Below, in pieces: positions 1-63,172 of a stretch of DNA of 64,000 nt (within the stretch, counting starts at the first letter, position 1; every line of letters begins with the position of its first letter). This DNA is from Spirochaetia bacterium. Its GTDB lineage: Bacteria > Spirochaetota > Spirochaetia > UBA9216. Under the pieces are notes generated by a model. The model made no database searches, was not told the origin of the DNA, and saw only the letters and a program-made list of their open reading frames with translations. The DNA is taken from NCBI GenBank assembly GCA_963675665.1, contig OY776510.1:4800001-4864000 (forward strand). Reading direction: 5' to 3'. The position numbers were made by a program, and so were the translations under genes.

Positions 1-137
1 TACCGTTCATCGGAAACCTTCTTCTCGACGGCTTTATTATCAACCTGCTGCTGAGCTGCAGGTTCATCCTTCGTGCAGCCTGAAAAAATTAATGCAATAG
101 TCATTAAAATCAATAAGCTTAAAAATATTTTCTTCAT
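1..137 (-). CDS. Lipoprotein, probable sugar ABC substrate-binding protein (5' part only, runs off window start)
   Basis: Not in the ORF track. Manual translation MKKIFLSLLILMTIALIFSGCTKDEPAAQQQV... with lipobox FSGC and GGAG RBS at about 147-150; follows an ABC operon. Confidence 0.75.
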   Translation of the reverse strand, partial: MKKIFLSLLILMTIALIFSGCTKDEPAAQQQVDNKAVEKKVSDER

Positions 138-199
138 AATAAAATTCTCCTGTTTCAATTGCTGGAGTAAAAAATCTCCCTGAATTATAACCCTTGAAA

Positions 200-1180
200 T
201 TAATCCCAGGGAAGTTTTGTTCCTCTGATTTCTTCAATATTCTCCATTGTGGTGACGGAGCCTGAAGAATCAAGAATTATCATATTATCCACGCTTCCGC
301 CGTTAATCAGAGTCAGCAGACTCTGCACTCCTACATAACCCATATCGTAAAAACTGTATCCTACCAACATCTGGGTCATACCGGACTCCAGAAAATCAAG
401 CATCGGATAAAAATTGTCGATACTTACCACCAGATTTCCGGCATCAACAAAATCTTTAACGGTACCCAGGGATTCAGGCGGAGCAAAAAACGGCCAGCCG
501 CCGATAAAAAACCATCCGTCAAGATTCGGATTCGCATTGGTAAAATCATCAATTACCTGTACTGCTTTATTTATGTCGTCTTCACAGGTCTGTATGGATA
601 CAATTTCAACATTGGAACCTTTTATTCCGTCTTTAAACCCTCGTATTCTTTCTTCAAGATTGAAGGCTCCGAGAATACCGGTAAGAAGAGCTGTTTCAAC
701 CTTTCCCGGTTTTTCTGAAGCAAGCTCCGAATATAACTTTCCTCCGAGCTTGCCAACATCATAGTTATCGATTCCTACATAAAATGCTCTGTCGCTGTCC
801 GGCGCATCTGAATCAAAAGTCGCCACATAGATGCCGTCAGCCATTGCCTTTGCAATGACATCATTCAGAGCCGACGGGTCATTACAGCTAATCAGCATTC
901 CGTCAACACCCTTTTGAATAAGCCCCTCAAGCACCTGGACCTGCTCTGCTGCATCACTTTTAAAACCTGCAGTCCAGATCAGCTCTATACCGAGCTCTTC
1001 AGCGGCTTTTTCAGCGCCTGCCTTGGTATCAAGGAACACAGGATTATCCATTGCCTTGGGGACAACCGCGATGGTTACCTTGCCGTTTTCAGCGCCTTTT
1101 CCTGCAGCATCCTGCTGACCGCCGGCAAAAAGAACGCCAGCCGCTATCAGCATCAGCCCGATTAGTAAGATTTTTTTCAT
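200..1180 (-). CDS. Sugar ABC transporter substrate-binding protein (RbsB-like)
   Basis: Signal peptide MKKILL...LFAGGQQD; motifs VPKAMDNPVF, TFDSD, ERIRGF; start set at ATG 1180 behind GGAGG. Confidence 0.9.
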   Translation of the reverse strand: MKKILLIGLMLIAAGVLFAGGQQDAAGKGAENGKVTIAVVPKAMDNPVFLDTKAGAEKAAEELGIELIWTAGFKSDAAEQVQVLEGLIQKGVDGMLISCNDPSALNDVIAKAMADGIYVATFDSDAPDSDRAFYVGIDNYDVGKLGGKLYSELASEKPGKVETALLTGILGAFNLEERIRGFKDGIKGSNVEIVSIQTCEDDINKAVQVIDDFTNANPNLDGWFFIGGWPFFAPPESLGTVKDFVDAGNLVVSIDNFYPMLDFLESGMTQMLVGYSFYDMGYVGVQSLLTLINGGSVDNMIILDSSGSVTTMENIEEIRGTKLPWD

Positions 1181-1230
1181 AATCTCTCCTCCTGAAAATA
1201 TTTGTTCCATAAATAATTATGGTTAACCCC

Positions 1231-2199
1231 TTATTTTGTTTTACGCTTGCTTGCCTGATCTCCGGCAATTGCGATTAAGATGACAATCCCGATTACGGTC
1301 TGTTGCCAGTACGGGGATACGTTAAGCAATATCAGTCCGTTTCTCAGCACCCCCATGATTGCCGCCCCGAGCATCGCCCCTACCACGGTTCCCTTTCCGC
1401 CCGACAGGCTTGCCCCGCCTATAATTACCGCAGCTATGACATCGAGTTCATAGCCTGTTCCTGATGTAGACTGGGCAACACCCAGCCTCGAAGTTGTAAT
1501 AATTCCCGACATTGCGGACAGAAACCCGCACAGAGAATAGATGACCACCTTAATTTTATTTACCTCTATACCGGAAATCTCAGCCGCCTCTTCATTGCCT
1601 CCTACAGCAAAAACCCGTCTCCCGAAAACAGTGCGTTCCAGAAGAAAAGAGAAGATAACAACAATCAACACCATATAAACAACCGGAAGCGGGATAATCC
1701 AGAGATAACCCTGGCCGATCGTATTGAAGCCGGACGGCGTCCGTATCGGATATCCGGTTGTAAGGGCATAAGCAAGGCCCCTTGCAACACTAAGCATACC
1801 AAGTGTCGCTATAAATGGCGGAATCCTGAGCAGTGTGATAAGAAATCCGTTCGCCATACCGAAAGCTGTTCCGGCGGCAAGCCCGATAAGAATCGAAACC
1901 GCGGGATTGAATCCTATTTTCTGGATAAAGAAAGCTGTCAGCAGACCGGTAAACCCGAATATTGAGCCGACAGATAAATCCACTCCGGCACTTATGATTA
2001 CAAAACACTGACCGACCGCAATGATCGCAATATACGAAAAAGCCCTCATGACCGAAAAGAGATTCTTCTGTGTCAGGAAATTGTCTGTAGCCAACGTCAG
2101 AAACAGCGACAACAGAACCAGTATCATCAATACGCTGAAATTCTTCATTTTCCCAAGATTTTTCAACTTAATCTTTTTATTTAATAATTCTTCAACCAT
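1231..2199 (-). CDS. Sugar ABC transporter permease (RbsC-like)
   Basis: GVDLSVGS, PPFIATLG, AVGGNEEAA, YELDVIAAVIIGGASLSGGKG. Confidence 0.93.
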   Translation of the reverse strand: MVEELLNKKIKLKNLGKMKNFSVLMILVLLSLFLTLATDNFLTQKNLFSVMRAFSYIAIIAVGQCFVIISAGVDLSVGSIFGFTGLLTAFFIQKIGFNPAVSILIGLAAGTAFGMANGFLITLLRIPPFIATLGMLSVARGLAYALTTGYPIRTPSGFNTIGQGYLWIIPLPVVYMVLIVVIFSFLLERTVFGRRVFAVGGNEEAAEISGIEVNKIKVVIYSLCGFLSAMSGIITTSRLGVAQSTSGTGYELDVIAAVIIGGASLSGGKGTVVGAMLGAAIMGVLRNGLILLNVSPYWQQTVIGIVILIAIAGDQASKRKTK

Positions 2200-2228
2200 T
2201 CATGAACTCCATTATTTATTTAAAATTA

Positions 2229-3722
2229 TCAGCAGGAACCGGAAGAAAGCGCGGTACTCATAATCATCTCCTGAGTTGCTTCAGAACCTTCAAGAGTACC
2301 CTTCCAGACTCCTTCGTGCATCACCACAATACGGTCCGACATTGACAGAATTTCAACCAGTTCCGAACTAATCATGATGATCGAAACTCCCTGTTTAGAC
2401 AGCTCATTGATAATATGATAAATTTCCTTTTTGGCTCCGACATCAATGCCGCGGGTAGGTTCATCAAGAATCAATATTTTAGGATTTGTCGACAGCCATT
2501 TTGCCAGCACGACCTTCTGCTGATTTCCGCCGCTGAGACTTGAAACCTCCGAATCTTCGTCCGGAGTCTTCAACTTCAGTTTTTCAATAAAATTAATTGA
2601 AATTTCTTTTTCCGCTTTACGATTAATTATTCCGCAGCTGCTTATTCTATTGAGATTTGCCATCGAAATGTTTTCCCTGACGGACAGGTCAAGAATCAGC
2701 CCCTGTTTCTTTCGGTCTTCCGGAACAAATCCGATGTTGTGAGCTATAGCCTTTGAAGGATGTTTTATTCTGACTTCACCACCTTCAAGGAAGATTCTGC
2801 CTCCGGTAATTTTATCCAGCCCGAAGAGAGCCCTCATCACCTCAGATCTGCCCGCGCCGACAAGGCCGGCAAAACCAAGAACTTCACCCTTTCGAAGGGA
2901 AAAACTTACATTCCTGACTCCATTATCCGTACTGAGATTTTCAACCCTCAGAACCTCCTTGCCTGCAGGATTCCTCGTTTTCTCAAACATAGTCTCAAGT
3001 TTTCGCCCGACCATCAGGGTAATTATTTCCTCTTCACTTGTCTGGTCCAGCCTGAGGGTATCAATATGCTTTCCGTCCCGAAGAATTTGAACACGATCGC
3101 AAAGACTGAAGATTTCTTCCATTTTATGCGAGACATAAACAATTGCTACACCGTCTCTTTTAAGTTCTTCTATAATTGCAAAAAGAATTTCAGCTTCAGC
3201 ATCCGTTAGACTTGATGTAGGTTCATCCATTATGATAATTTCGGACTCAAACGAAAGAGCTTTTGCAATCTCAACCATCTGTTTTTGCGAAACAGAAAGT
3301 TCATCGATCAGGGTATCCGGTTTAATTTTCAACCCGACTTTTTCAAGCAGAACAGAGGCGGCTTCCCGCATTCCGGTTTCATTTATTATTCCTGCTGCCG
3401 ACGTTATTTCTCTTCCTATAAAGATATTATCTGCAATACTCATGTTCGGAAGAAGATTAAGCTCCTGATGAATAATGCTTATTCCCAGTTCTTCCGCCTG
3501 TTTCGGATGCTGAATATCTATTTTTTCTCCGTTGTACTCCACATACCCGCTGTCTTTATGGATTATTCCGCCGATTATTTTAATCAATGTTGATTTTCCG
3601 GCGCCGTTTTCACCAATAAGTCCCAGTACCTCACCTTTTTTCAGTGAGAAATCCACATTTCCCAGGGCCTGTACCCCTGGAAATGATTTTGAAATATTCT
3701 TCATCATATAGAATTCAGACAT
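2229..3722 (-). CDS. Sugar ABC transporter ATP-binding protein (RbsA/MglA-like, tandem NBD)
   Basis: GENGAGKST, MDEPT, LSGGNQQK, DEPTRGIDVGAK; start moved to ATG 3722 (or 3725) behind GAGGT. Confidence 0.93.
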   Translation of the reverse strand: MSEFYMMKNISKSFPGVQALGNVDFSLKKGEVLGLIGENGAGKSTLIKIIGGIIHKDSGYVEYNGEKIDIQHPKQAEELGISIIHQELNLLPNMSIADNIFIGREITSAAGIINETGMREAASVLLEKVGLKIKPDTLIDELSVSQKQMVEIAKALSFESEIIIMDEPTSSLTDAEAEILFAIIEELKRDGVAIVYVSHKMEEIFSLCDRVQILRDGKHIDTLRLDQTSEEEIITLMVGRKLETMFEKTRNPAGKEVLRVENLSTDNGVRNVSFSLRKGEVLGFAGLVGAGRSEVMRALFGLDKITGGRIFLEGGEVRIKHPSKAIAHNIGFVPEDRKKQGLILDLSVRENISMANLNRISSCGIINRKAEKEISINFIEKLKLKTPDEDSEVSSLSGGNQQKVVLAKWLSTNPKILILDEPTRGIDVGAKKEIYHIINELSKQGVSIIMISSELVEILSMSDRIVVMHEGVWKGTLEGSEATQEMIMSTALSSGSC

Positions 3723-3743
3723 CATATACCTCATGCCACTAAA

Positions 3744-3760
3744 CGCAAGAAAGATGCCAA
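3744..3760 (-). promoter_or_regulatory. sigma54 (-24/-12) promoter of the sugar ABC operon
   Basis: Minus strand TTGGCATCTTTCTTGCG = GG-N10-GC, about 20 bp upstream of the ATPase start and next to a sigma54 activator gene. Confidence 0.75.
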
Positions 3761-3830
3761 AAAACTGTGAATTCAAATATTTTATAATTGCTTATGATAT
3801 ATGGAAATAAATTGAACAGAAAAAAAACTG

Positions 3831-3859
3831 TTGACAAACCCTTGCACATTATGTATAGT
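3831..3859 (+). promoter_or_regulatory. sigma70 promoter of the two-component genes, overlapped by TTGCACAT repeats
   Basis: TTGACA-N17-TATAGT; TTGCACAT at 3842 and 3862. Confidence 0.65.
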
Positions 3860-3882
3860 TATTGCACATATTGAGGTTTACT

Positions 3883-5208
3883 ATGTGTGCAGAAATATTG
3901 ATTGTCGACGATAATATAAATGTATCGAAAAGTCTAAGTGATAATTTTGAGCATTTCGGATTTAAGTGTGATACAACCGAAAACGGACTTGATGCTATTA
4001 ATGCGGTACTTTCATATAATTACAGGCTTGTTCTTCTTGACCTTAAACTGGGTTCAGAAAACGGTATAGAAATTCTTAAAAAAATAAAATCGATAAACGA
4101 AATTCTGCCTGTAATTCTTATAACCGGTTTCGGAACTATAGACACAGCCATCGAAGCAATGAAAGGCGGAGCATATGACTATATAGAAAAACCCATCAAC
4201 TTCGACAAGTTGCTGGGAATTTCGAAAAATGCAATAGAAATATATAACCTTAAAATTGAAAACAGAAAATTAACATCTCAGCTGGAAAATTCCCAACTCT
4301 CAACAAAATCAACAAAAATGATGCAGGTTATTGAGAATGCAATCATCCTGGCAAAATCTCCGCTTCCGATTCTTCTTCTGGGCGAAAGCGGTTCAGGAAA
4401 GGATGTTTTTGCCGAACTGATACATAATAACTCGGATCGTAAAGCCCTCCAGATGGAAAAAATAAATTCTGCGGCATTTCCTGAAACCCTGCTGGATAAC
4501 GAACTTTTCGGACATGAAAAAGATGCATATACAGGAGCAAACAGTCTCTTTAAAGGAGTTTTTGAGCGGGCTCATAACAGCACACTTTTTCTCGATGAAA
4601 TAGGAGACATGCCACTGTCAATTCAGGCAAAAATTCTTCGGGCCATCCAGAATCAGGAAATAAGGAGACTCGGGGGGTCTGTAAATATAAAGATAAATAC
4701 AAGATTTATAGCCGCAACCAATAAAAATATAGATGAATTGATGGAAAAAAATCTTTTCAGAGAGGACTTATTTTACAGACTTAATTCCGGTATTCTTAAA
4801 ATCCCGCCGCTGCGAGAGCATACTGAAGATATCCCCGCACTGTGTAAATGTTTTATAACGGAACATTGCAAACAGACTAACTCGGATCCGAGAATAGTAT
4901 CTGAAAATGTATATGACCGGTTTATGAATTACAGCTGGCCCGGCAATATCCGGGAACTTAAAAGCACAATAGTGTACGCGCTTACCATATCGAGAAATAA
5001 TAAAATTGAACTGGACGATCTTCCTGAATACATCACAAGCAGAAATAAGAAAATAATCTCATCAGCCGCTCCGGCAAATAACTCTGAAAAGCAGCAGATT
5101 ATTGAAGCTCTTCAAAAGGCAAAATATAATAAAACGAAAGCAGCAGAACTTCTGAACATAAGCCGGCGGACTTTATATAACAAGATGGATTCCTATGGCA
5201 TCGATTAA
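3883..5208 (+). CDS. sigma54-dependent response regulator (NtrC/AtoC family: REC-AAA+-Fis HTH)
   Basis: IVDD...LLDL...EKP receiver; GESGSGKD; ELFGHEKDAYTGA; LFLDEIG; FREDLFYRL; WPGNIREL; KAAELLNISRRTLY; ATG 3883 behind GAGGT. Confidence 0.93.
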   Translation: MCAEILIVDDNINVSKSLSDNFEHFGFKCDTTENGLDAINAVLSYNYRLVLLDLKLGSENGIEILKKIKSINEILPVILITGFGTIDTAIEAMKGGAYDYIEKPINFDKLLGISKNAIEIYNLKIENRKLTSQLENSQLSTKSTKMMQVIENAIILAKSPLPILLLGESGSGKDVFAELIHNNSDRKALQMEKINSAAFPETLLDNELFGHEKDAYTGANSLFKGVFERAHNSTLFLDEIGDMPLSIQAKILRAIQNQEIRRLGGSVNIKINTRFIAATNKNIDELMEKNLFREDLFYRLNSGILKIPPLREHTEDIPALCKCFITEHCKQTNSDPRIVSENVYDRFMNYSWPGNIRELKSTIVYALTISRNNKIELDDLPEYITSRNKKIISSAAPANNSEKQQIIEALQKAKYNKTKAAELLNISRRTLYNKMDSYGID

Positions 5209-7018
5209 TGCTTTGCTCACACTTAATGACATTTCTCTCTACAATGAAAATTTCGAAATTTTAAGCAAAATCAATCTCTCGCTCTTCCCGTCTGAAATTC
5301 ATTGTATTCTAGGAAAATACGGCAGCGGAAAATCAGAGCTGGCAAGAGTTCTGCGGGGCAGATTACGACCCGGAAAAGGTTTTATAGAAATTGATAATAA
5401 AAAATTCTCCTGGCTGAAGATAAAAGATTCCATAAAACTGGGGATTGCAGTTTTTCAACATGAAGATCTTTTCCAGGAAAATATAAAAGCCAAGGAATAT
5501 CTGTATGATAAATATTATTCCCATAATCTTACAATTCTCTCGGTTAAAAAAATAGACTCCTATTATTCACAGGTTGCAGAGAAATATTCTCTTACCTTCA
5601 GCGGCAACTGTGAACTCGGAGAGCTTACCATCTCGGAAAAATACTATCTCGGAATAGTAAGAATACTTGAGAAAAATCCAAAGATAATAGTTCTTGATGA
5701 AATTCTGGATAAACTGGACAAACGGTTTTTAATACCGGTAATGGAGTTACTTGAAGAAAAAAAAAGGCAGGGCTCAAACATCCTGATAATAACCAATAAT
5801 ATTGATGAGGTCTATAATATTGCAGAGCGGGTTTCAATCATTAAAAACGGAAGAATAATTTATACAGATTTTGTAAAGGAAATCGAAAAGATAAATCTTA
5901 TCAAACTTGCTTATGCTGAAATATCGCAAACCTATCCGGAAGATGAAGAAGATTTTTATCATCTTCTTAAATATAACGAAGCGATTCTCCTGGAACTGCC
6001 TTTAAATCTTATTATTATTGACAAAAACATGAAAGTAAAAATAGCCAATAGGAATGCCTGCGAGTTCTACAGACTTAAGAATACGCACATGGAATCAGTG
6101 ATGCTGGAAGATCTCTTTAAAGGGAATCAGCACGTCTTCAAGGTCTTAAAAAAGGCATTTCAGCAAAGAGAAGCAAAGGTTATATACAATTCTGTTCTTT
6201 CCTTCAATAATTCAAAACTGATAACCAATATAAAAACCTACCCTGTATTCGACGGTCCGGATTTCATTGGTTTTATAATTGCCCTTGAAGACGTAACTGT
6301 ACAGGAGAATATCCGCAAACAGCTTTACATGTCTGAGAACCTGTCTTCCATCGGACTCTTATCTGCAGGCGTTGCACATGAAATTAACAATCCCCTTGAA
6401 ATAATCTCAAACTGCACAAGTTATCTAAAGTACAATATAGACGATCCGGTACTTAATGATAAAATCAGAACCATTGAAGGGGAAATAGAGTCGATATCCA
6501 GTATTATAAGTAATTTAGTCGGCATAAGTCATAACAAGAGAGAGAAATTGGAACATTTTAATCTATTCAAGCTCATCGACACGCTCCAAACCTTATTATC
6601 GAAAAGTCTGTCGACAAAAAGGATAACGCTTCATCTGAGAAAGAGTAGTACCGAGATAGGTGTTTTTGCAGACATTACAGAGATAAAACAAATATTCCTA
6701 AACCTGATCAAGAACAGTATTGAATCAATAGGCTCAGACGGTAATATCTATATAGATCTTTTAAAAATCGACAGTAATAATATTCAAATATCCATAACCG
6801 ATGACGGAAACGGCATAGACGAGAATATGGTCAACAACCTTTTTCTTCCGTTTTATTCAACCAAATATGATGTTGGCAAGAATCAGGGACTTGGTCTGTA
6901 TATCATCTATGGAATAATAAAAAAGTATAACGGCGAAATAGAAGTTAAAAACCTGGATAAAGGCTGCTGTTTTACAATAAGAATGCCTATATTATTTGAT
7001 CTGAATAAAAATCTCTAA
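5195..7018 (+). CDS. Histidine kinase with N-terminal ABC-ATPase-like domain and PAS-like domain
   Basis: N-terminal GKYGSGKS (Walker A) and IIVLDE (Walker B); PAS-like LPLNLIIID...AN; H-box GVAHEINNPL, N-box QIFLNLIKNS, DDGNGI, LFLPFYSTK, GLGL; no TM segment seen. Confidence 0.88.
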   Translation: MASINALLTLNDISLYNENFEILSKINLSLFPSEIHCILGKYGSGKSELARVLRGRLRPGKGFIEIDNKKFSWLKIKDSIKLGIAVFQHEDLFQENIKAKEYLYDKYYSHNLTILSVKKIDSYYSQVAEKYSLTFSGNCELGELTISEKYYLGIVRILEKNPKIIVLDEILDKLDKRFLIPVMELLEEKKRQGSNILIITNNIDEVYNIAERVSIIKNGRIIYTDFVKEIEKINLIKLAYAEISQTYPEDEEDFYHLLKYNEAILLELPLNLIIIDKNMKVKIANRNACEFYRLKNTHMESVMLEDLFKGNQHVFKVLKKAFQQREAKVIYNSVLSFNNSKLITNIKTYPVFDGPDFIGFIIALEDVTVQENIRKQLYMSENLSSIGLLSAGVAHEINNPLEIISNCTSYLKYNIDDPVLNDKIRTIEGEIESISSIISNLVGISHNKREKLEHFNLFKLIDTLQTLLSKSLSTKRITLHLRKSSTEIGVFADITEIKQIFLNLIKNSIESIGSDGNIYIDLLKIDSNNIQISITDDGNGIDENMVNNLFLPFYSTKYDVGKNQGLGLYIIYGIIKKYNGEIEVKNLDKGCCFTIRMPILFDLNKNL

Positions 7019-7103
7019 ACATAAATAAAACGGTCCCTGTAGACAAAATATTAATTATCTGCCCCCTTGATCACAATGCAACATCTATGGATATTAAATA
7101 TTA

Positions 7104-7967
7104 ATGACAAACAAACTTGCTGCATCCAGGCTAAAACCGATCCTGCTTGTTCTTACTGCTACACTTCTCTTCAGCATAGGGGCACCGATAGGGAAAATTA
7201 CATCAAGCTCGCCGTTTGTACTTACCTTTTTCAGATGTCTTACCGGACTTATTGTTTTCGCCATAGTACATATTATCAAAGGCCGCGGTCCGCTGTTTAT
7301 AGTCAAATCTGAATTTATAATCGGTGGAGCTCTCTATGCTTCAACTTCAATTTGCTTCTATATAGCATTGAATTACACAACAGCGGCAAACGTTACGGTA
7401 CTGGGAAATACATCTCCCTTCTTTCTGGCTATTTTGGGATTCCTGTTCCTTCATGAAAAACCTTTAAACCGGGACTGGATTATTTTGCTGTTAATAATGT
7501 CCGGAATTTTCCTGTGTTTCAAGAGCGGGTTATCATTCAAGGGAGCAAGAGGCGATCTTCTGTCGCTGCTGGCCGGATTTCTTTTTTCAATTTTAGTTGT
7601 AATATTAAAGAAATGTGATTCGGAAAATACCATGCAACCTCTTATCTGGGGAAGCCTGATTGCATCCATAGCAACTCTACCTGCACTATTCAGTCCGGGA
7701 GCTATCATCCTGAAGAATATTCCTTTTTTTATAATTCTCGGTATCTTTCAGATGGCTATACCGTTTTTTCTTTATGCGAAAGGGCAACAAAGTATGGGAG
7801 CTATGGAAGCATCACTTTTCAAACTTCTTGAACCGGTCGCAGCTACAATCTGGACCGCTTTACTTGTAGGCGAGATTCCGACACTTTATTCAATAATCGG
7901 CGGAGTCCTGGTGATTGCCGCTCTTTTTTGCAAAACCTTTCTTGAGTATCGCAACAGCTTAAAATAA
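7104..7967 (+). CDS. EamA/DMT family transporter
   Basis: About 10 hydrophobic segments; TTAANVT, FLHEK, LEPVAA, LVGE..T...IIGG. Confidence 0.88.
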   Translation: MTNKLAASRLKPILLVLTATLLFSIGAPIGKITSSSPFVLTFFRCLTGLIVFAIVHIIKGRGPLFIVKSEFIIGGALYASTSICFYIALNYTTAANVTVLGNTSPFFLAILGFLFLHEKPLNRDWIILLLIMSGIFLCFKSGLSFKGARGDLLSLLAGFLFSILVVILKKCDSENTMQPLIWGSLIASIATLPALFSPGAIILKNIPFFIILGIFQMAIPFFLYAKGQQSMGAMEASLFKLLEPVAATIWTALLVGEIPTLYSIIGGVLVIAALFCKTFLEYRNSLK

Positions 7968-8048: not shown

Positions 8049-9065
8049 ATGAAAAGGATAATTGCATGCCTGATAGCAGTAATTCTGCTTGCAGGAGTCG
8101 CGTTTGCTGAAGGACAGCAGGAGAAAGCGGGCGGGGATGAGGCCCAGAAAACCTATGTATTCAAATATGCTCATACCCAGTCACCAAACCATCCGAGAAG
8201 TAAATCGATGGACTTCTTCAAAGAACAGCTTGAGAAAGCAAGTAACGGAAGAATCAAGGTTGAACTTTATTTTAATGGTGTTCTGGGGACAGAAGCTGAA
8301 GTTCTTGACATGGTAAAACTCGGCGACATACAGGGAAGCCGCGGGGGCCTGTTTGAAAGAGCAAACAAAAAGTTCCTGATTTATACTCTTCCCTTTATGT
8401 TTAATAATACCGATCAGGTTCAGGAAGTAATGTTCGGCCCGATTGGACAGGAGATTAACAAGGGTGCACTTGCCAACGGTATATATATTCCTGCTACCGG
8501 TGTTGCCGGCGGATTCAGAAATATCACCAATAACGTTCGTCCGATTAATACCGTAGCCGATCTCAAGGGACTTAAAATGAGGACGCCGCCGATTGATATG
8601 ACAATTAAAACATTTAAAGCTCTGGGCGCAAATCCTCAGCAGGTTGCATATACAGAAACCTACATGGCTCTTAAAACAGGCGTTGTAGACGGACAGGAAA
8701 ACCCGTTCTCCAACACTGTTGATATGAAATTCTACGAAGCACAGAAATATCTATCTCTTGTAAACTGGCAAATTCATCCGGATCCTTTCTATGTAAACCC
8801 CGACTGGTATAACTCGCTTTCTGACGACCTGAAAGCAATTTTCGACTCAGTTGCTGAATCGACCATAAAATATTCCAACGAAAAATGGCTCGGGAGTGAA
8901 AAGGATTATTTCTATACTCTCAAGGAAAATCTTGAAGTAAACGAAGTAAGCGCTGCAAATCATGCAGGATTCGTAAAAGCCGCCGAACCGGTTTGGCAAG
9001 GTTATGTTGACGACGGGTTCTTCACATGGGATGAGATAAACGCAATACTCGACTCTGTTAAATAG
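8049..9065 (+). CDS. dctP: TRAP transporter substrate-binding protein
   Basis: GFRN, DLKGLKMRT, ALKTGVVDGQENP. Confidence 0.92.
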   Translation: MKRIIACLIAVILLAGVAFAEGQQEKAGGDEAQKTYVFKYAHTQSPNHPRSKSMDFFKEQLEKASNGRIKVELYFNGVLGTEAEVLDMVKLGDIQGSRGGLFERANKKFLIYTLPFMFNNTDQVQEVMFGPIGQEINKGALANGIYIPATGVAGGFRNITNNVRPINTVADLKGLKMRTPPIDMTIKTFKALGANPQQVAYTETYMALKTGVVDGQENPFSNTVDMKFYEAQKYLSLVNWQIHPDPFYVNPDWYNSLSDDLKAIFDSVAESTIKYSNEKWLGSEKDYFYTLKENLEVNEVSAANHAGFVKAAEPVWQGYVDDGFFTWDEINAILDSVK

Positions 9066-9083
9066 GATTATATTCGATAAAAC

Positions 9084-9106
9084 ACCGGGGCCTGTTAAGC
9101 CCCGGT
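9084..9106 (+). terminator. Stem-loop after dctP
   Basis: ACCGGGGC-N7-GCCCCGGT. Confidence 0.55.
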
Positions 9107-9134
9107 AATCTTTTAGAGGGAGAATTCCAATACT

Positions 9135-9638
9135 ATGGAAGAAAAAAACTCTTCTGCTGTATCAAGAGTTGAAACTGTACTGAACAGGATTCTTAATTCA
9201 CTTATAACAGTTGTGTTCTTCGTTATCGTCGTTTTAACAATTTTACTGGTCATTCTGAGATATGTATTTAATACGGGGATTATAGGCGGCAACGAACTTA
9301 TGGAATACCTGTTTGTCTATACAACAGCTATAGGTGCCGCAATAGCAATAGGAAAAAATGAACATATACGCATCAACTTTTTCATGGAAAGCAGAGGCCC
9401 GGTATTGAAAAAAGTATCGGATCTGTTCGGGATTGCATGTATAGCCCTGATAAATATTGTTTTTATGTATCTGAGCTATAGATGGATATCCAGGGTCGGC
9501 GGAAATGAATCTCCGGTACTGAGAGTACCAATGAGAATAATTCAGGTCAGCGTACCGGCCGGATGTATTCTTTCGGTAATTTACTGCGGATTTAATACAT
9601 ATAAAATCATCACAAATAAGGGAGATGGAATTAAATAA
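9135..9638 (+). CDS. dctQ: TRAP transporter small permease
   Basis: 4 TM segments; VILRYVF, EL..YL, HIRI, SPVL. Confidence 0.88.
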   Translation: MEEKNSSAVSRVETVLNRILNSLITVVFFVIVVLTILLVILRYVFNTGIIGGNELMEYLFVYTTAIGAAIAIGKNEHIRINFFMESRGPVLKKVSDLFGIACIALINIVFMYLSYRWISRVGGNESPVLRVPMRIIQVSVPAGCILSVIYCGFNTYKIITNKGDGIK

Positions 9639-10912
9639 TGGCAATTTTATTAATCAGTCTTGCAGCACTATTAATTCTGGGTGTTCCCATAGCATATTCG
9701 CTTGGAGTCTCCGGTTTTCTGTATTTCGTAATTCAGCAGCCTGATTTGATATCGGTTCTTCCCCAAAGGTTTTTTGCCGGCATGCAGTCATATTCAATGA
9801 TTGCGCTGCCGCTTTTCTGCCTGATGGGCTCGCTTATGAACGCAAGCGGCATAACGACCAGGCTGATTGATTTCTGCATGCTTATAATAGGCCGCCTGCG
9901 GGGCGGTCTGGGTATGGTTAATGTCTTTGCCAGCATGATATTCGGCGGAATCTCGGGGTCATCGGTTTCAGACACTGCATCGGTAGGCGCCATTCTGATA
10001 CCCGAAATGAACAAAAAAGGATATTCACTTGAGTATGCAAGCGGCATAACTGTTGCTTCATCAACAATGGGAATGATTATCCCGCCCAGCGTTCCAATGG
10101 TCATCTACGCAATGGCGGCTGAAGAGTCAGTGGGAAAACTTTTCCTCGGAAGCGCCATACCCGGCTTTATGATCGGCCTGATAATGCTCGGAATCACTTT
10201 CGGAATAAGCTATACAAAAAAACATCCGCGGGAAGAGCGAAATCTCAACAGAAAAGAAAAACTGATAACCATACAGCGTTCAATTCTGTCAATAATAATG
10301 CCCCTCTTTGTTATAGGATCAGTTGTCCTTGGGATAGCAACTGCAACAGAATCAGCCGGTATCGGCGTTCTGTACGCATTTATTATAGGAACATTCGTTT
10401 TTAAAACACTGAAACTTAAAGATCTGCCGCCGCTGATCAAGGAAGCGGCTATTACCTCTGCCAAAGTAATGATAATCATTGCCATGTCGAAACTGTACAT
10501 CTGGATCCTGGCCATTGAAAGGGTCCCTGATGCTCTCGCTCTTTTTGTCTCGGGTCTGGAGCTTCCGCCTTTTATGATCCTTATAATCATTGATATTATT
10601 ATACTGCTGGCCGGCACTTTTCTTGATGTAAGCCCTGCAATCCTGCTGTTAACACCGATATTCCTTCCCATTGCCCAGCTTCTGGGTGTGGAGGCAGTAC
10701 AATTCGGAGTAATTCTGATATCCGGTCTTGCTGTAGGCCTTGTTACTCCTCCGGTAGGGATGTGTCTTAATGTAGCATCATCAATTTCAGGGCTTGAAAT
10801 CGGAACAATCTTCAAATCTGCAGTACCTTTTTTAACGGCTAATCTGGTGACGTTGCTCGCCATAACTTTTATACCGCAACTAACACTATTGTTGCCATCA
10901 CTTTTTATGTAA
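9638..10912 (+). CDS. dctM: TRAP transporter large permease
   Basis: FGGISGS..SD, IIPPS, TATE, GLVTPPVG. Confidence 0.93.
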   Translation: MAILLISLAALLILGVPIAYSLGVSGFLYFVIQQPDLISVLPQRFFAGMQSYSMIALPLFCLMGSLMNASGITTRLIDFCMLIIGRLRGGLGMVNVFASMIFGGISGSSVSDTASVGAILIPEMNKKGYSLEYASGITVASSTMGMIIPPSVPMVIYAMAAEESVGKLFLGSAIPGFMIGLIMLGITFGISYTKKHPREERNLNRKEKLITIQRSILSIIMPLFVIGSVVLGIATATESAGIGVLYAFIIGTFVFKTLKLKDLPPLIKEAAITSAKVMIIIAMSKLYIWILAIERVPDALALFVSGLELPPFMILIIIDIIILLAGTFLDVSPAILLLTPIFLPIAQLLGVEAVQFGVILISGLAVGLVTPPVGMCLNVASSISGLEIGTIFKSAVPFLTANLVTLLAITFIPQLTLLLPSLFM

Positions 10913-57922: not shown

Positions 57923-59089
57923 TTACAAACATTTATTATACAAAGCCCTGATTTCCTGCTCTGATGCAACGCGCGGGTGATTCCGAACATTAACCCCGTA
58001 ACCGTTCATTGCTACTTCTACAGCCTTATCTATATCTGCTTCCTTAAGCCCGATTTCCGAAAATGTGATATTCCCGCCGACATAATCGAGAAATCTTTCT
58101 ATAAGAAGAACGCTTTTTTCAGCTTTTTCATAAAGCGGCAATCCTGACACGGAAGGATCGATGCATTCGGCAAGCTGTCCGAATTTTTCAAAGTTGCTCA
58201 TATAACTGAATTCAATCACTTTCGCCAGGCATGCTGCTATGGAAGCCCCGTGCGGAGCATCGGCAATTCCGCCGACGGGCTGCCCGAGAGCGTGAGGCAG
58301 ACCTACTCCGGCATGACCGATTGCTACTCCTCCGAGAGCGCTCCCCCATGCCATGGCCTTGCGTGCTTCAAGATTCCCGCCGTTTGAAACAGCTTCGGGC
58401 AGGTTTCGGGTAATTATCCTTATCCCCTCTTTGGCAACCATGTCGCTGAAAGGAGTTGCGGCATTTCCGATAAAAGCTTCCAGACAGTGAGAAAGCGCGT
58501 CTATTCCTGTAAGTGCCGTAAGTTTTGGCGGAAGCGTTATCATAAGCTCAGCATCAATAACTGCATAATCCGGAAATATCCTGTTGCTGATGATAGTTCC
58601 CTTTTCATGTTTTTCAGGATTGCTTATTACAGAATAATGTGTAGCCTCAGTCCCTGTTCCGGAGGTAGTCGGGATGACAATGATAGGCAGAACTTTTCCT
58701 ATTTTGTTTGACGGTCGGTCTTCACGATCGATAAAATCCCACGAACCGCCTTCATTCTCAGCCATTACAGCAATGGCCTTGCCTGTATCAATAGCGCTGC
58801 CGCCCCCGACTGCAAGCACGGAATCGCAACGGTTCTTTTTACAGACCTCAGCACCCTCGTCTATTTCCAGACAGCTAGGATTGGGCTTTACCCTGGAATA
58901 AATTGTTGTCTCAATATTGTCCTTACTCAGCAGCAATTCCAGTTCTGCAATAAGTCCGTTCTCAACAAAAAAAGGATCCGACACAAGAAAGCATCTCTTT
59001 CCAAAAGGTTTTATGTACTTGGCTAACTCCCGGTACCCCCCCGCCTTAACGATCAGTTCGCCCGGAAGCTGACATGAAAAATCAATCAT
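57923..59089 (-). CDS. Iron-containing alcohol dehydrogenase
   Basis: GGGSAID.GK, PTTSGTGTE, GIDALSH..E, GLPHAL, PHG. Confidence 0.9.
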   Translation of the reverse strand: MIDFSCQLPGELIVKAGGYRELAKYIKPFGKRCFLVSDPFFVENGLIAELELLLSKDNIETTIYSRVKPNPSCLEIDEGAEVCKKNRCDSVLAVGGGSAIDTGKAIAVMAENEGGSWDFIDREDRPSNKIGKVLPIIVIPTTSGTGTEATHYSVISNPEKHEKGTIISNRIFPDYAVIDAELMITLPPKLTALTGIDALSHCLEAFIGNAATPFSDMVAKEGIRIITRNLPEAVSNGGNLEARKAMAWGSALGGVAIGHAGVGLPHALGQPVGGIADAPHGASIAACLAKVIEFSYMSNFEKFGQLAECIDPSVSGLPLYEKAEKSVLLIERFLDYVGGNITFSEIGLKEADIDKAVEVAMNGYGVNVRNHPRVASEQEIRALYNKCL

Positions 59090-59104: not shown

Positions 59105-60253
59105 TTATAATCCGGCAAGCCCGCTCTTGTAATCCCTGCCTATCTTCTCTGCAGTCAGAATTGCGGCACGCATCTCATGAAACTCTATCAGGAACGGTTC
59201 CGTATGTGAGGTCTGGGCCGGAGCACAGGCTCCGCCGGCAATGGTATCGAGCTCTTCCTCCGTGATATCGCCTACTTTCAGATCCTCGAATGTTACCGGC
59301 AGGCCTACACTAATACAGAATTCAACAACCTCTTCAATTTCATCCTTGTCGGCACCTTCAAGAACAAGCATTACGATCGTTCCGAAAGCTACATATTCTC
59401 CATGAAACATATGCTCCCTGCCGCTCAGTTCACTAAACCCGCCGTAAACAGCATGTGCCGTGCTTACGCCGTTACTCTCAAAACCGATACCGCTCATAAG
59501 AGAATTGGCTTCAACTATTCTGTTAAGCGCTTTGGTAACCACATTATTGTCGCAGGCCATTTTTGCCTGAACACCGCATTCAAGCAGAACTTCATAACAG
59601 AGCTCGGCAATGGCCATGGAAGTTTTTGTCGCCTTGGTGCCGGCTGAACCGTCACCGCCCATTCCGCCGCCTGCTATTCCGAGGAAATTATCCCGGTATG
59701 CATTTACACATGTCCGTGCTTCAAAATATGTCGAAAGTGCGTCGCCCATTCCGGCAACAAGCAGGCGTGAAGGCCCGCGGGCAATAATGTCCGTATCAAC
59801 AAGAACTACATCAGGGCTGCGTTCAAAGAAGATTACGTCCTCCTGAGAACCATCTTCCCTGTAGATTACCGAAAGAGCGCTTGTCGGAGCATCATTCGAA
59901 ACAATTGTAGGAACAATACATATCGGCATTTTCACTTCGTTAGCTGCAGCTTTGGCAACATCCAGAACCTTACCGCCCCCTAGAGCAATAACTCCGTCGC
60001 TTTCAGTTTCTTTTATTACTGAAACAACCCTTGAGATTTCCTGTCGCGTAACTTCTCCGTTGAAAACAACGTATTCCAGCTTTACTCCGGTACCTTCAAA
60101 ACTTTTCTCGAGTTCTGCCTGAAGACTTTCTTTTCTTCCCTTGCTGGTTACAACCACCAGCGATTTTCCAAACCATTTGATATATTGGTAAATCCTCTCC
60201 AATTCTTTATAGCCCTGGATGTATCTCCCGGGTGAAGCAAACATTTGCGTCAT
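59105..60253 (-). CDS. gldA: Glycerol dehydrogenase (GldA family)
   Basis: SPGRYIQG, GGGK.LD.AK, PTI.S.DAPTSALSVIY, GDALSTYFEA, SGIGFES, AHA, HGE.VAFG. Confidence 0.85.
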   Translation of the reverse strand: MTQMFASPGRYIQGYKELERIYQYIKWFGKSLVVVTSKGRKESLQAELEKSFEGTGVKLEYVVFNGEVTRQEISRVVSVIKETESDGVIALGGGKVLDVAKAAANEVKMPICIVPTIVSNDAPTSALSVIYREDGSQEDVIFFERSPDVVLVDTDIIARGPSRLLVAGMGDALSTYFEARTCVNAYRDNFLGIAGGGMGGDGSAGTKATKTSMAIAELCYEVLLECGVQAKMACDNNVVTKALNRIVEANSLMSGIGFESNGVSTAHAVYGGFSELSGREHMFHGEYVAFGTIVMLVLEGADKDEIEEVVEFCISVGLPVTFEDLKVGDITEEELDTIAGGACAPAQTSHTEPFLIEFHEMRAAILTAEKIGRDYKSGLAGL

Positions 60254-60347: not shown

Positions 60348-60364
60348 TGCAACATTCATGCCAA
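60348..60364 (-). promoter_or_regulatory. sigma54 (-24/-12) promoter of the gldA operon
   Basis: Minus strand TTGGCATGAATGTTGCA, near-consensus. Confidence 0.8.
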
Positions 60365-60597: not shown

Positions 60598-61620
60598 TTA
60601 CTTTTTCATTTTCTTTTCGCGCCAGGTGTCGAAGGATACTACAACTACAATTACAATACCCAGAATAACCTTCTGCCAGAACGGAGTTACGTTGGTAAGA
60701 TCAAGACCGTTATTGAGTACCCCGATTGTAATGATACCAATAACGGTGCCGCCGATACTGCCTATTCCGCCGACAAGGCTTGTTCCGCCCAGAGCTACAG
60801 CCGTTATTGCAAGGAGTTCCATGCCGCTGCCCATAATTGCATTTGCTCCGCCGAGTCTTCCCACCATAACCAGACTGCCCAGAGCACAACAGAACCCGCA
60901 GAGACCGTAAACAATAACTTTTATTTTCTCAACCTTGATTCCGCTTACCCTGGCAGCTTCGGGGTTTCCTCCGACTGCATAGATATTTACGCCGAGAGTT
61001 GTATGATTAAGCATTATCCAAATCAGAGCTGCAACGCCGGCAAATACAAATACAGAAACCGGAACAACTCCTACAGTTCCGCTTCCAAGTACCAGCAGTA
61101 TATCCGGAAGACCCGAGATCGGGATTCCTCCTGAAATAAACAACGCCAATCCGCTTACAGCTGTCATGGTTCCCAGCGTGGCAATAAAATCCTGAATTTT
61201 AAATCTGGTTATTACCAACCCGTTTACAATTCCGATAAGAGTGCCCATTCCCAGGCTGGCGGTTACAGAAAGCCATGGAGGAAACCCAAGCTTGGTGGAT
61301 GTAACCGCAATTAAACATCCGCAGGCGGCCATTACGGAACCGACCGACAAATCAATACCGGCTGTAAGAATTACCAGGGTCTCTCCCAGGGCCATTATTC
61401 CGAGAACAGAAGACTGCCTGATAATATTCAGCAGATTGCTTGTTTTCAAAAACATCGGACTGGCAACCGACATGAATATAAACAGAAAAAGCAAAATCAG
61501 GACCGGACTGCTTTTCTGCATAAAGCTTGATAATTTACCCCGCCCTTCCTTTTCTTCTGCACAACCTTCAACATCGGAAATTTTATTCTCTTCCATTTTT
61601 AACACTTTATCTTTAACCAT
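60598..61620 (-). CDS. Sugar ABC transporter permease
   Basis: AGIDLSVGS, FIATLG, AVGGNPEAARVSG, GGTSL.GG.G. Confidence 0.92.
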   Translation of the reverse strand: MVKDKVLKMEENKISDVEGCAEEKEGRGKLSSFMQKSSPVLILLFLFIFMSVASPMFLKTSNLLNIIRQSSVLGIMALGETLVILTAGIDLSVGSVMAACGCLIAVTSTKLGFPPWLSVTASLGMGTLIGIVNGLVITRFKIQDFIATLGTMTAVSGLALFISGGIPISGLPDILLVLGSGTVGVVPVSVFVFAGVAALIWIMLNHTTLGVNIYAVGGNPEAARVSGIKVEKIKVIVYGLCGFCCALGSLVMVGRLGGANAIMGSGMELLAITAVALGGTSLVGGIGSIGGTVIGIITIGVLNNGLDLTNVTPFWQKVILGIVIVVVVSFDTWREKKMKK

Positions 61621-61622
61621 AT

Positions 61623-63116
61623 TTATGCTCCTGCAGCCTTTCTAACAATTTCTTCCTGTGAAGTATTACCGGTTTTAAATTTACCCGTTATGCACCCTTT
61701 TTTCATAACAAGTATGTTATCCGAGATACCCAGCAGTTCCGGCATGTCTGATGAAACCAGTATTACAGAACCGCCGTTTCTGGTTATCTGGTTAATTATT
61801 TTATAAACTTCGACCTTGGCGCCTACATCTACACCACGGGTCGGATCATCCATAAAAAATACCTGTGTTTCATTACACAGCCATTTTGCCAGTGCAATTT
61901 TCTGCTGATTACCGCCGCTCAATGTGGAAAGGTTATGCTCCAAATCAGCCGTTTTATCCAGTCTCAGTTCTGCGGCAAGTTCTCCGGCAATCGACAGTTC
62001 CTTTTTCCGGTTTCTGATCCCACCTCTGCTGAAGGTTGCAGGTGATGAAATAATTATATTTTTTAAAATTGTCATGTTTGCAAAAAGACCTTCGCGCCTG
62101 TCTTTTGTTACAAGCCCGAATTTCTTATTAATCATATAAGTCGGAGATTTGCATTCCAGTACGGTATTTCCGAAATTAACGCTCCCTTTTTTAATTTTTT
62201 CAAGTCCGAACATAGCTTTTAAAAGTTCGGTTCGCCCGGAACCCACAAGGCCGGCAATTCCAAGAACTTCACCTTTTCTCAGATCAAAATTTATATCATA
62301 AAAGTGTTTATTATCGGAAAGATCGTTAACACTGAATATAATTTCTTCGGTGACATTATATTCTTTCGGATATTGCTCATCGAGTTTTCGGCCTACCATC
62401 ATTTCAACAAGCTCATCCTCATTTGTTTCTTCAACTGTATTAACCGTCCCGACCGAACTTCCGTCACGTAGCACTGTAACCCTGTCGCCTATATTAAATA
62501 CCTCGGACATTTTATGTGTGATGTATATGAATGATACGCCGTCCGATTTAAGTTTATTAATTACCGAAAACAACTTTTCGGTTTCAGATCCTGTAAGAGC
62601 GGATGTGGGTTCATCAAGAATAACCAGACGCGCATCTCTTGAGGTGGCCCTGATTATTTCAACAAGCTGCTGGATACCGAGATCATACTCTGAAACCCTT
62701 TTTGAAACATCTATCTCAATTTCAAGTTCCATGAAAACACGTTTTACATAATTCTCGGCCCTTTTCCAGTCTATAAACGGTGAAGCGCCGATCCTGGGCA
62801 TCCTGCCAATCCATATATTTTCAAAAACGCTTCTTTCTTTAAGTAAAGTCAATTCCTGATATACCATACCTATTCCCAAATCCAGGGAATCTGAAGGTCT
62901 TTTTATATTAACTTCCTGATCATGCCAGAATATACTGCCGCAGTCCGGTTGATGCACTCCTGAAAGAATTTTCATCAGTGTAGATTTACCTGCTCCATTC
63001 TCCCCAAGAAGTACATGGACTTCACCTTTCATTACTGAAAAATCAACACCGTTAAGCGCATGTACTCCCTGAAACTGTTTTCTTATATCGTGCATTCGAA
63101 GAATTTCACTACCCAT
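61623..63116 (-). CDS. Sugar ABC transporter ATP-binding protein
   Basis: GENGAGKST, LDEPT, LSGGNQQK, PTRGVDVGAK. Confidence 0.92.
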   Translation of the reverse strand: MGSEILRMHDIRKQFQGVHALNGVDFSVMKGEVHVLLGENGAGKSTLMKILSGVHQPDCGSIFWHDQEVNIKRPSDSLDLGIGMVYQELTLLKERSVFENIWIGRMPRIGASPFIDWKRAENYVKRVFMELEIEIDVSKRVSEYDLGIQQLVEIIRATSRDARLVILDEPTSALTGSETEKLFSVINKLKSDGVSFIYITHKMSEVFNIGDRVTVLRDGSSVGTVNTVEETNEDELVEMMVGRKLDEQYPKEYNVTEEIIFSVNDLSDNKHFYDINFDLRKGEVLGIAGLVGSGRTELLKAMFGLEKIKKGSVNFGNTVLECKSPTYMINKKFGLVTKDRREGLFANMTILKNIIISSPATFSRGGIRNRKKELSIAGELAAELRLDKTADLEHNLSTLSGGNQQKIALAKWLCNETQVFFMDDPTRGVDVGAKVEVYKIINQITRNGGSVILVSSDMPELLGISDNILVMKKGCITGKFKTGNTSQEEIVRKAAGA

Positions 63117-63136
63117 TATAATACCCCATATTAATT

Positions 63137-63165
63137 TGCGGGCCTGCCTGACAGGCAGGCCCGCA
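63137..63165 (-). terminator. Stem-loop downstream of SBP gene
   Basis: TGCGGGCCTGCCT-GAC-AGGCAGGCCCGCA. Confidence 0.6.
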
Positions 63166-63172
63166 GAAATAA

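Follow-up and report, generated by a model that had tools for sequence, protein, structure and literature searches.

A family of soluble histidine kinases joined to a sugar-importer nucleotide-binding domain, encoded beside transporters with predicted sigma-54 promoters in a Spirochaetia bacterium

A 64,000-nucleotide stretch of the genome of a Spirochaetia bacterium of the UBA9216 lineage (assembly GCA_963675665.1, contig OY776510.1, positions 4,800,001 to 4,864,000; hereafter the window) encodes a soluble histidine kinase (5195..7018, plus strand) whose input region is a nucleotide-binding domain (NBD) of the type found in the first half of ribose/xylose/arabinose (CUT2) sugar importer ATPases. 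The kinase gene belongs to a group of five genes (200..7018) in two divergent units, with an NtrC-type response regulator and the kinase on the plus strand and the three genes of a CUT2 ATP-binding cassette (ABC) importer on the minus strand. Relatives in databases, in the same genome and in metagenomes indicate that this is a real and widespread sensor architecture, and the family is apparently unstudied. Comparative sequence evidence gives good support to the view that the regulator-kinase pair controls the adjacent operon through sigma-54. For the signal itself, we favour a reading, with a probability of about 0.4, in which the kinase NBD docks on the importer permease and reports the state of the transporter.

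The kinase is encoded in a single uninterrupted frame of 607 codons. Its first 240 residues (5195..5914) form an ABC NBD of the CUT2 NBD1 type according to Pfam, NCBIfam, protein BLAST (BLASTP), the family alignment and AlphaFold2 (AF2) modelling with Foldseek comparison, which bears out a first-pass annotation that had likened about 240 N-terminal residues to the first NBD of a sugar ABC ATPase. Pfam ABC_tran matches residues 23-169 (E 1.6e-14, 55.1 bits; cut-off 25), and the best NCBIfam matches of residues 1-250 are to the first NBD of YtfR, AlsA, AraG, XylG and RbsA (E 7.5e-31 to 3e-24), every one of them under its equivalog cut-off. Identity to NBD1 of the neighbouring ATPase is 24% over 231 residues (BLASTP, E 3e-16). 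The motifs quoted in the same annotation are all present: Walker A GKYGSGKS (residues 40-47), Walker B IIVLDE (164-169), LTISEK at the signature position (144-149) and ITNN where the H-loop His would stand (199-202). The helix that follows the domain, LIKLAYAEI, is the counterpart of LIxxMVGR in ATPases. An AF2 model made with 120 family sequences has a mean predicted local distance difference test score (pLDDT) of 82.6, mostly above 90 for residues 10-230, and Foldseek places its N-terminal domain with LptB (4p33, template-modelling score 0.86 of target), 1gaj (0.80), MetN and other NBDs.

In the model, NBD residues 1-240 lead through a low-confidence linker (243-247) into a helix (248-266), which precedes a five-strand alpha/beta PAS-like unit (271-366); the helix and this unit are encoded at 5936..6292. 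Next comes the kinase core (6296..6994), which comprises the dimerization and histidine phosphotransfer (DHp) helices (368-443) and the catalytic ATP-binding domain (453-600). Pfam recognizes HisKA at residues 388-441 (29 bits; cut-off 26.9) and HATPase_c at 493-598 (71 bits), and for the C-terminal 360 residues Foldseek returns the LOV/PAS histidine kinases 8a6x, 4gcz and 3a0r. No Pfam PAS family matches the window's kinase; many homologs carry PF13426, PF08448 or PF00989. The phospho-acceptor is His395 in AHEINNPL, and H395, N503, N507, D536, G538, G540, F553, G565 and G567, which belong to the HisKA-class boxes, are invariant in the family alignment. No transmembrane helix was found in the kinase, for which the highest 19-residue Kyte-Doolittle mean is 1.35, compared with 2.77 in the permease. 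The earlier description of a PAS-like segment and a HisKA/HATPase core without a membrane segment is therefore upheld by AF2, Foldseek, Pfam and hydropathy. Only residues 254-599 align with the AtoS model NF008468, over their full length (E 7.6e-58, 196 bits against a cut-off of 646), and by descent the protein combines a PAS kinase of the AtoS/NtrB kind with a CUT2 NBD1. Helix 248-266, at the junction, has the family motif FYxLLKYNEAIL, with N261, A263, L265 and L268 invariant in 120 sequences, and is the most conserved stretch of the family outside the catalytic parts. In LOV/PAS kinases, the two PAS domains enclose an N-terminal helix that contributes to setting the kinase state; here, the helix is modelled as attached directly to the NBD.

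The fusion is not peculiar to this locus. A homolog search of a 5.8-billion-protein database, from which the best 120 relatives were analysed, returned PF00005 together with PF02518 in 120/120 proteins of 560-663 residues, and a length of about 600-620 residues is typical of the family. The few source names that are available place relatives in Spirochaetaceae, Sphaerochaetaceae, Treponema, Marispirochaeta, KSB3/Moduliflexus and Spartobacteria, with annotations such as 'histidine kinase', 'ATP-binding cassette domain-containing protein' and 'PAS domain S-box-containing protein'. The same genome has eight full-length paralogs, and metagenome contigs yielded 79 loci with 66 full-length kinases. 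Within a Spirochaetota sample, a full-length match at E <= 1e-90 occurs in at least 13 of 301 genomes, that of the window included; only four candidates were scored per genome, which makes the genome count a lower bound and copy numbers unusable. A further scan of genome contigs by full-length alignment was dominated by the generic H-box and returned mostly ordinary kinases, with family members only at loci L001-L004, L009 and L011. Neither Pfam nor NCBIfam contains a model specific for the kinase family. A kinase with a fused ABC NBD is not described in the searched full-text literature, whose coverage lies outside subscription journals, nor among the passages that term look-ups reach in PMC12316311 and bioRxiv 10.64898/2026.02.27.708494; the first-pass remark that no such characterised kinase was known is in line with this. 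Split or truncated genes, which could be frameshifts or assembly errors, were seen on contigs of metagenome-assembled genomes at L011:2646-4453 (kinase) and at L132:9050-10498 and L132:12319-13735 (kinase and ATPase).

To trace the origin of the input domain, 29 kinase NBDs were placed in one tree together with both NBDs of 28 neighbouring ATPases. All kinase NBDs fall into a single clade (Shimodaira-Hasegawa-like approximate likelihood ratio test, SH-aLRT, 99) and NBD2 forms a separate clade (SH-aLRT 100); NBD1 cannot be split off from the kinase clade, which lies next to or within CUT2 NBD1. Because the kinase NBDs are monophyletic and NBD1-like, a single fusion event from an NBD1-like domain is indicated, and on this tree they do not appear to be recent copies of each neighbouring ATPase. 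ATP-site residues are retained almost throughout the 120 family members (Walker A Lys in 119/120, Walker B Asp in 120/120, catalytic Glu in 111/120), as are the Q-loop Gln (112/120) and the H-loop His (108/120). An LSGG (SGG) signature occurs in 0/120; the family has an LSDR-like sequence instead, and its D-loop region reads DEALEKL where ATPases have DEPTSxL. This pattern suggests that the ATP-binding face is under selection and that the two canonical motifs of the NBD-NBD sandwich are not. The degenerate signature itself is inherited from CUT2 NBD1, in which it is already weak: the neighbouring ATPase has canonical GENGAGKST, DEPT and SHK in NBD1 with a weak LSVSQ signature, and GAGRS, no His and a canonical LSGGNQQK in NBD2. 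The VAENxF helical-subdomain motif that follows the Q-loop is common to NBD1 and the kinase NBDs, and at 59 NBD1 columns conserved at 80% or more, the majority residue is the same in 31 for the kinase NBDs and in 27 for NBD2, a comparison domain that is a genuine permease-docking domain. The kinase NBD retains the NBD1 side of the asymmetric CUT2 ATPase arrangement. In the subclade of the window's kinase (6 of 40 aligned sequences: this kinase and its five closest relatives), the H-loop His is lost and the Q-loop is shifted; the label 'pseudo-ATPase' suits this small His-less group and, judged by the alignment, is overstated for the family.

The regulator gene (3883..5208, plus strand) starts most likely at ATG 3883 rather than at TTG 3862, and its stop at 5208 lies beyond the kinase ATG at 5195, so that the two genes overlap by 14 nt. 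Its three Pfam domains (Response_reg 6.6e-24, Sigma54_activat 7.6e-59, HTH_8 3.2e-14) correspond to a receiver (REC), an AAA+ sigma-54 interaction domain and a Fis-type helix-turn-helix (HTH), and both the overlap and the NtrC-type assignment are as first annotated. The divergent importer operon begins with a two-NBD CUT2 ATPase (2229..3734, minus strand; the open reading frame extends to TTG 3776), which most likely starts at ATG 3734 or 3725 rather than at TTG 3776. Within the gap of about 150 nt between the operons and directed into the importer operon, a sigma-54 type -24/-12 element, TGGCAT-N5-TTGC (TGGCATCTTTCTTGC), lies at 3759..3745 on the minus strand, where the first-pass annotation had also seen such a promoter. 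Its GG (-24) and GC (-12) are correctly spaced and it lies upstream of the target operon, and the genome has one rpoN (G000:C1:914059-914541), features that together mark it as a predicted sigma-54 dependent promoter. The pattern has 2 matches in the window, compared with 0.36 expected from shuffles. The regulator-kinase operon is preceded on the plus strand by a sigma-70-like promoter, TTGACA-17-TATAGT, at 3831..3859; it is a consensus match only and the best of its kind in 1..7400 (11/12 consensus positions). A search of 3740-3890 for upstream activator sites found no convincing operator, only AAAAAACTGT twice, 63 nt apart, and two weak palindromes.

The arrangement recurs at nearly all kinase loci with enough flanking sequence. 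An NtrC-type regulator overlaps or abuts the kinase on its 5' side in 8/8 paralogs of the same genome, and a CUT2 set of binding protein, ATPase and permease lies beside 7/8; six of these seven sets are divergent from the regulator and one is upstream on the same strand. TGGCA[CT]-N5-NTGC faces the neighbouring operon at 7/8 paralog loci, with no -24/-12 motif found at the locus of paralog 5; for scale, the whole 5.15 Mb genome has 58 relaxed matches and 25 strict (TTGC) matches. In other genomes, 22 loci hold 23 systems; the regulator gene immediately precedes the kinase gene in 22/23, the remaining kinase being cut by a contig end, and 21/23 have two or more kinds of CUT2 gene alongside, with one kind in the other two. 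One of the latter (L126) is on a 5.4-kb contig with a permease as the only CUT2 gene. Of the metagenome loci, 54 have 1.6 kb or more of flank, and in 52 of these the kinase gene directly follows that of the regulator; two or more kinds of CUT2 gene occur in all 35 that have at least 5 kb upstream. The architecture and its neighbourhood, which the first-pass annotation had proposed as a check, are therefore conserved in the best 120 relatives and in 7/8, 21/23 and 35/35 systems, and none of the sequence observations that it had named as fatal to its proposal, such as an N-terminal domain without ABC_tran similarity or homologs unlinked to sugar ABC operons, was encountered. Linkage alone does not show contact, because a local regulator is expected beside its target anyway.

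A GAFTGA-type sigma-54 contact loop occurs in 29/30 family regulators, and one is without a pattern match. The loop is GAFTGA, GAYTGA, GSYTGA or GAFTDA in 28 other family regulators, and DAYTGA in the window regulator, in which the first Gly is replaced as well as the Phe. Tyr in place of the canonical Phe is also frequent among the regulators of L002, L117-L120, L122 and L123 and of paralogs 2-4 of the same genome. At three positions in two other genomes, L124:5703-6500, L131:5908-6753 and L131:2623-3411 (all minus strand), a single, fully canonical NBD of 262-281 residues replaces the two-NBD ATPase. A split-RbsA arrangement, with the kinase supplying NBD1 to an NBD2-only ATPase, was considered and rejected: these short ATPases are complete, with LSGGQRQ or CSGGEMQ, Walker A and His, and all other neighbours have two NBDs.

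We propose the following mechanism. The regulator and kinase genes would be transcribed from the sigma-70-like promoter, and the kinase would be a soluble dimer with the chain order NBD, short linker, N-terminal helix, PAS, DHp and catalytic domain. When active, it would phosphorylate the NtrC-type regulator, and the sigma-54 promoter of the divergent operon for ATPase, permease and binding protein would open. This output half is very probable, with an anatomy that is seen directly and functions that follow those of well-known families. For the input half, the two NBD1-like domains of the kinase dimer would seat on the cytoplasmic coupling helices of a homodimeric CUT2 permease, at the site normally taken by the two NBDs of the transporter ATPase; the permease is presumably a homodimer because it is the sole permease gene in the operon. 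Docking of sugar-loaded binding protein outside would move the permease, and this motion, gated by ATP at the intact Walker site of the kinase NBD, would alter the spacing or tilt of the NBDs. From helix 248-266 the change would be relayed by way of the PAS dimer to the DHp bundle in the fashion of LOV/PAS kinases, and the output would mean 'substrate present at the transporter', with no need for sugar to enter the cell. That NBD-permease docking reads the transporter state in this way is our favoured but uncertain view of the signal step, and docking as such is plausible. Put more broadly and still more tentatively, an importer chassis may serve as a transmembrane receptor, in which a CUT2 permease dimer carries a kinase dimer instead of the ATPase and a binding protein-permease-kinase complex reports extracellular sugar without transport; eight insulated channels of this kind could exist in one genome, with a spread over Spirochaetota, KSB3 (Moduliflexus) and other lineages.

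Three kinds of analysis bear on docking to the permease. Complex prediction with two permease copies and kinase residues 1-250, each with a 120-row alignment, gave 'weak support' with a score of 0.50 (runs 0.52, 0.50 and 0.50), and the best of three controls scored 0.00. In calibration, the mark was reached by 116/157 solved complexes and by 2/215 mismatched pairs; passes at scores of 0.60 or below comprise only 18 of the 157 solved complexes and both passing mismatches. Contacts agreed to at least 94% among runs, and the pLDDT of the partners was at least 77. The permease has no sequence relatives among solved structures in the Protein Data Bank (PDB), and the pass is therefore not recall of this family; it may reflect the generic arrangement of NBDs on coupling helices.

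Comparison of distance matrices (mirror-tree) gives another line of evidence. Across 21 systems, the regulator and the three kinase parts co-vary (r 0.76-0.98), and so do the three transporter parts (0.78-0.81); between these modules the NBD-permease correlation is highest, at 0.52 compared with 0.37-0.41 for PAS, core and regulator. With core and regulator removed, the NBD-permease r is 0.35, which 0/3000 permutations reach; no such tracking of the permease is seen for core or regulator in this set. After addition of metagenome systems and removal of near-duplicates (38 non-redundant of 56 systems), the partial r is 0.22 (P 0.0055), and the core (-0.06) and regulator (-0.02) do not track the permease. 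NBD-ATPase tracking is nil once the permease is removed (r 0.00 for 21 systems, -0.08 for 38). The 19 metagenome systems alone, an independent subset, give r 0.22 (P 0.04). We regard NBD-permease co-divergence as suggestive.

Several observations weigh against docking. The complex score lies in a band that the tool itself rates 'more often wrong than right unless the guess was likely beforehand', and no interface was returned. Kinase NBDs do not resemble cognate ATPases more than others: over 22 systems, identity is 27.6% to the NBDs of the ATPase of the same operon and 27.2% to others, the Q-loop and helical region gives 24.3% and 23.5% (P 0.19), three sub-regions give P 0.19-0.84, the seven systems of the window's genome give P 0.24-0.77, and ranks are scattered. 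The mirror-tree signal is absent from these seven paralog systems (r -0.28, P 0.82), falls to r 0.20 (P 0.018) for all systems and 0.12 (P 0.19) for the metagenome subset when the ATPase is also controlled, and is accompanied by an NBD residual of 0.36 towards the regulator; the Mantel-type permutation tests from which these values derive over-call on related sequences. Two neighbourhoods do not conform, since paralog 4 (G000:C1:4312120-4313949, in locus L094, 4312120-4320915) is without CUT2 genes nearby and L123 has binding-protein-like genes only. The operon encodes a complete two-NBD ATPase, and the kinase would have to contend with it for one docking site. Sigma-54 promoters do not normally fire in the absence of their activator, and the permease that the kinase is proposed to read would therefore have to come from some presumed basal expression. 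Finally, the 5.15 Mb genome encodes 70 two-NBD CUT2 ATPases, 94 BPD_transp_2 permeases and 26 NtrC-type activators, and with so many ATPases and permeases in one cell, eight kinases would need sharp docking specificity. Of the first-pass interpretation, the fusion, the NtrC-type partner and the link to sugar ABC operons with -24/-12 promoters are supported, and docking of the kinase as a pseudo-ATPase subunit is at best plausible: the weak complex-prediction pass (0.50 compared with 0.00) and the modest, partly replicated mirror-tree signal specific to the NBD-permease pair favour docking, and the lack of cognate resemblance and the His kept in 108/120 relatives do not fit it.

A somewhat less likely alternative is a cytoplasmic sensor without any contact with the transporter, in which the NBD is an ATP-binding module for energy state or dimerisation, the PAS domain binds imported sugar or a catabolite, and firing needs both ATP and ligand. 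Retention of ATP-site residues with an altered signature and D-loop fits binding without a canonical hydrolysis cycle, and a PAS fold does lie between the NBD and the kinase core. The lack of resemblance between the kinase NBD and the cognate ATPase is also in its favour, as is paralog 4, which faces a purely catabolic operon with no transporter, and neighbourhood conservation is to be expected of any local regulator. Such a sensor leaves unexplained the constant pairing of a CUT2 NBD1 input with a CUT2 importer; a transporter of another class never takes the place of that importer even though the genome has such transporters (TRAP, 8049..10912). It also leaves unexplained the NBD-specific co-divergence with the permease and the weak complex-prediction pass, and the Q-loop Gln and helical-subdomain motif that the kinase keeps are permease-contact elements in transporters.

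Contact could instead be with the transporter ATPase, for example if the kinase NBD placed its own canonical Walker side on the LSGGNQQK of NBD2 while the transporter is idle and so read the ATPase cycle. The NBD1 pattern of the kinase domain suits this idea, given that NBD1 in CUT2 ATPases needs the NBD2 signature for the only consensus ATP site; yet NBD2 is covalently tied to its own NBD1, kinase NBD distances do not track the ATPase with the permease accounted for (0.00 and -0.08), and the neighbouring ATPases at L124 and L131 are single, fully canonical NBDs rather than NBD2-like halves, which makes such pairing improbable. The chance that the fusion is an artefact is negligible, whether through faulty assembly or sequencing that merged two genes (for an ABC ATPase fragment and for an AtoS-like kinase) or through decay into a pseudogene. 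Its sole hint is the missing H-loop His and shifted Q-loop in the subclade of the window's kinase, and it is countered by the one open frame, by like architecture and length in the best 120 relatives, eight paralogs of the same genome and 66 full-length metagenome copies, and by a junction helix more conserved than any other part of the family outside the catalytic regions. The strict tie between CUT2 NBD and CUT2 importer, the retained Q-loop and helical motifs, the complex prediction and the mirror-tree signal favour the view that the kinase reads the transporter physically, at the permease rather than at the ATPase.

The proposed system can be compared with known modes of transporter-coupled and sigma-54 dependent sensing. 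In the Bce modules of Firmicutes, the membrane kinase BceS contacts the separate MacB/FtsX-type exporter BceAB and signals to an OmpR-type regulator. The likeness is that a sensorless kinase would read the conformational cycle of a neighbouring ABC transporter and induce that transporter. However, the kinase here is soluble and is paired with a CUT2 importer that has a binding protein, and with a sigma-54 activator as its regulator, whereas Bce modules have an intramembrane-sensing kinase with two transmembrane helices, an FtsX-type exporter and an OmpR-type regulator; moreover, contact here would be made by a transporter NBD that is part of the kinase polypeptide. The NBD-kinase system may thus work like a Bce module, but it is not a member of that group. 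In PstSCAB-PhoU-PhoR, the NBD PstB is a working transporter subunit and the adaptor PhoU bridges to membrane-bound PhoR. The state of an ABC importer NBD would likewise pass to the PAS domain of a histidine kinase here, but through an NBD covalently joined to the PAS-kinase and with no adaptor seen in the locus. The combination of a PAS-HisKA-HATPase_c kinase with a REC-AAA+-HTH activator of sigma-54 promoters is that of AtoS/AtoC and NtrB/NtrC, and the regulator matches the AtoC model at E 2.4e-112 (376 bits, below the cut-off of 714). AtoS has a transmembrane and HAMP input and NtrB reads PII, however, and neither has an NBD. The input domain shares with CUT2 NBD1 (RbsA, AraG, XylG, AlsA, YtfR) its sequence family, fold, Walker A and B, catalytic Glu, Q-loop, weak signature and post-NBD helix, and differs in being single without NBD2, in having DEALEKL for the DEPT/D-loop and a further degraded signature, and in its fusion to a kinase. 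KdpD, a membrane-anchored sensor kinase, has a cytoplasmic input P-loop with Walker A and B that binds ATP. The likeness extends to a cytoplasmic input region with both Walker motifs, but the domain families differ: KdpD is not derived from an ABC NBD, and its domain was not matched in the Pfam search of the present kinase.

The remaining genes of the locus belong to the importer. The ATPase contains two ABC_tran stretches (Pfam E 5.8e-58) and matches the NCBIfam RbsA model at E 3.5e-183 (610 bits, below the cut-off of 745). The permease (1231..2199, minus strand; BPD_transp_2, E 3e-44) resembles RbsC, GguB and AraH in NCBIfam, below cut-off. The final gene of the operon (200..1210, minus strand) encodes a periplasmic sugar-binding protein (Peripla_BP_4, E 3.9e-57), the likely start of which is the ATG at about 1180 that gives MKKILL; in NCBIfam it comes closest to RhaS and RbsB, reaching the cut-off of neither. 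The transporter is of CUT2 type, yet it lies below every NCBIfam equivalog cut-off. Past the binding-protein gene, a second full set of binding protein, two-NBD ATPase and permease lies on the same strand (window 1..158 and G000:C1:4796555-4800158); the sigma-54 promoter may drive both sets, or the second may be separately controlled. On the 3' side of the kinase, an EamA-family transporter (7104..7967, plus strand), confirmed by Pfam, is followed on the same strand by what appears to be a tripartite ATP-independent periplasmic (TRAP) system (8049..10912) with a binding protein (8049..9065), a small membrane protein (9135..9638) and a large one (9638..10912).

Six CUT2 ATPases lie within the window, at 2229, 21812, 34436, 40052, 51838 and 61623. 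The last belongs to a second like system at the window end (60598..64000, minus strand), which runs on to G000:C1:4867740 and consists of a permease (60598..61620), a two-NBD ATPase (61623..63116) and a binding protein from 63173, with the regulator and NBD-kinase of paralog 7 just past the window (G000:C1:4864584-4867740). Two Fe-alcohol-dehydrogenase genes (59105..60253 and 57923..59089, minus strand) are directly downstream of the paralog 7 transporter genes, and the only other strict TGGCAY-N5-TTGC in the window (60349..60363, minus strand) lies 5' of them; by position and pattern it may be a second promoter of the paralog 7 regulon. At locus L094, the regulator of paralog 4 faces a -24/-12 motif followed by genes for two Zn-dehydrogenases, a glycyl-radical enzyme and its activase, and a second -24/-12 motif precedes a DJ-1/PfpI gene on the 3' side of the kinase.

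These kinases bear on the question of how cytoplasmic kinases without a sensor of their own learn what is outside the cell. To our knowledge, all cases of transporter-coupled sensing demonstrated to date involve a kinase in contact with a transporter that is a separate entity. If docking on the permease is correct, a kinase that bears the docking domain of the transporter itself would be the most direct form of such sensing, and the family would provide a clean system for reading the motions of ABC membrane domains, with NBD, helix, PAS and DHp on one soluble polypeptide and many natural variants. It would also explain how dozens of near-identical CUT2 importers in sugar-scavenging spirochaetes are switched individually by means of tight sigma-54 promoters.

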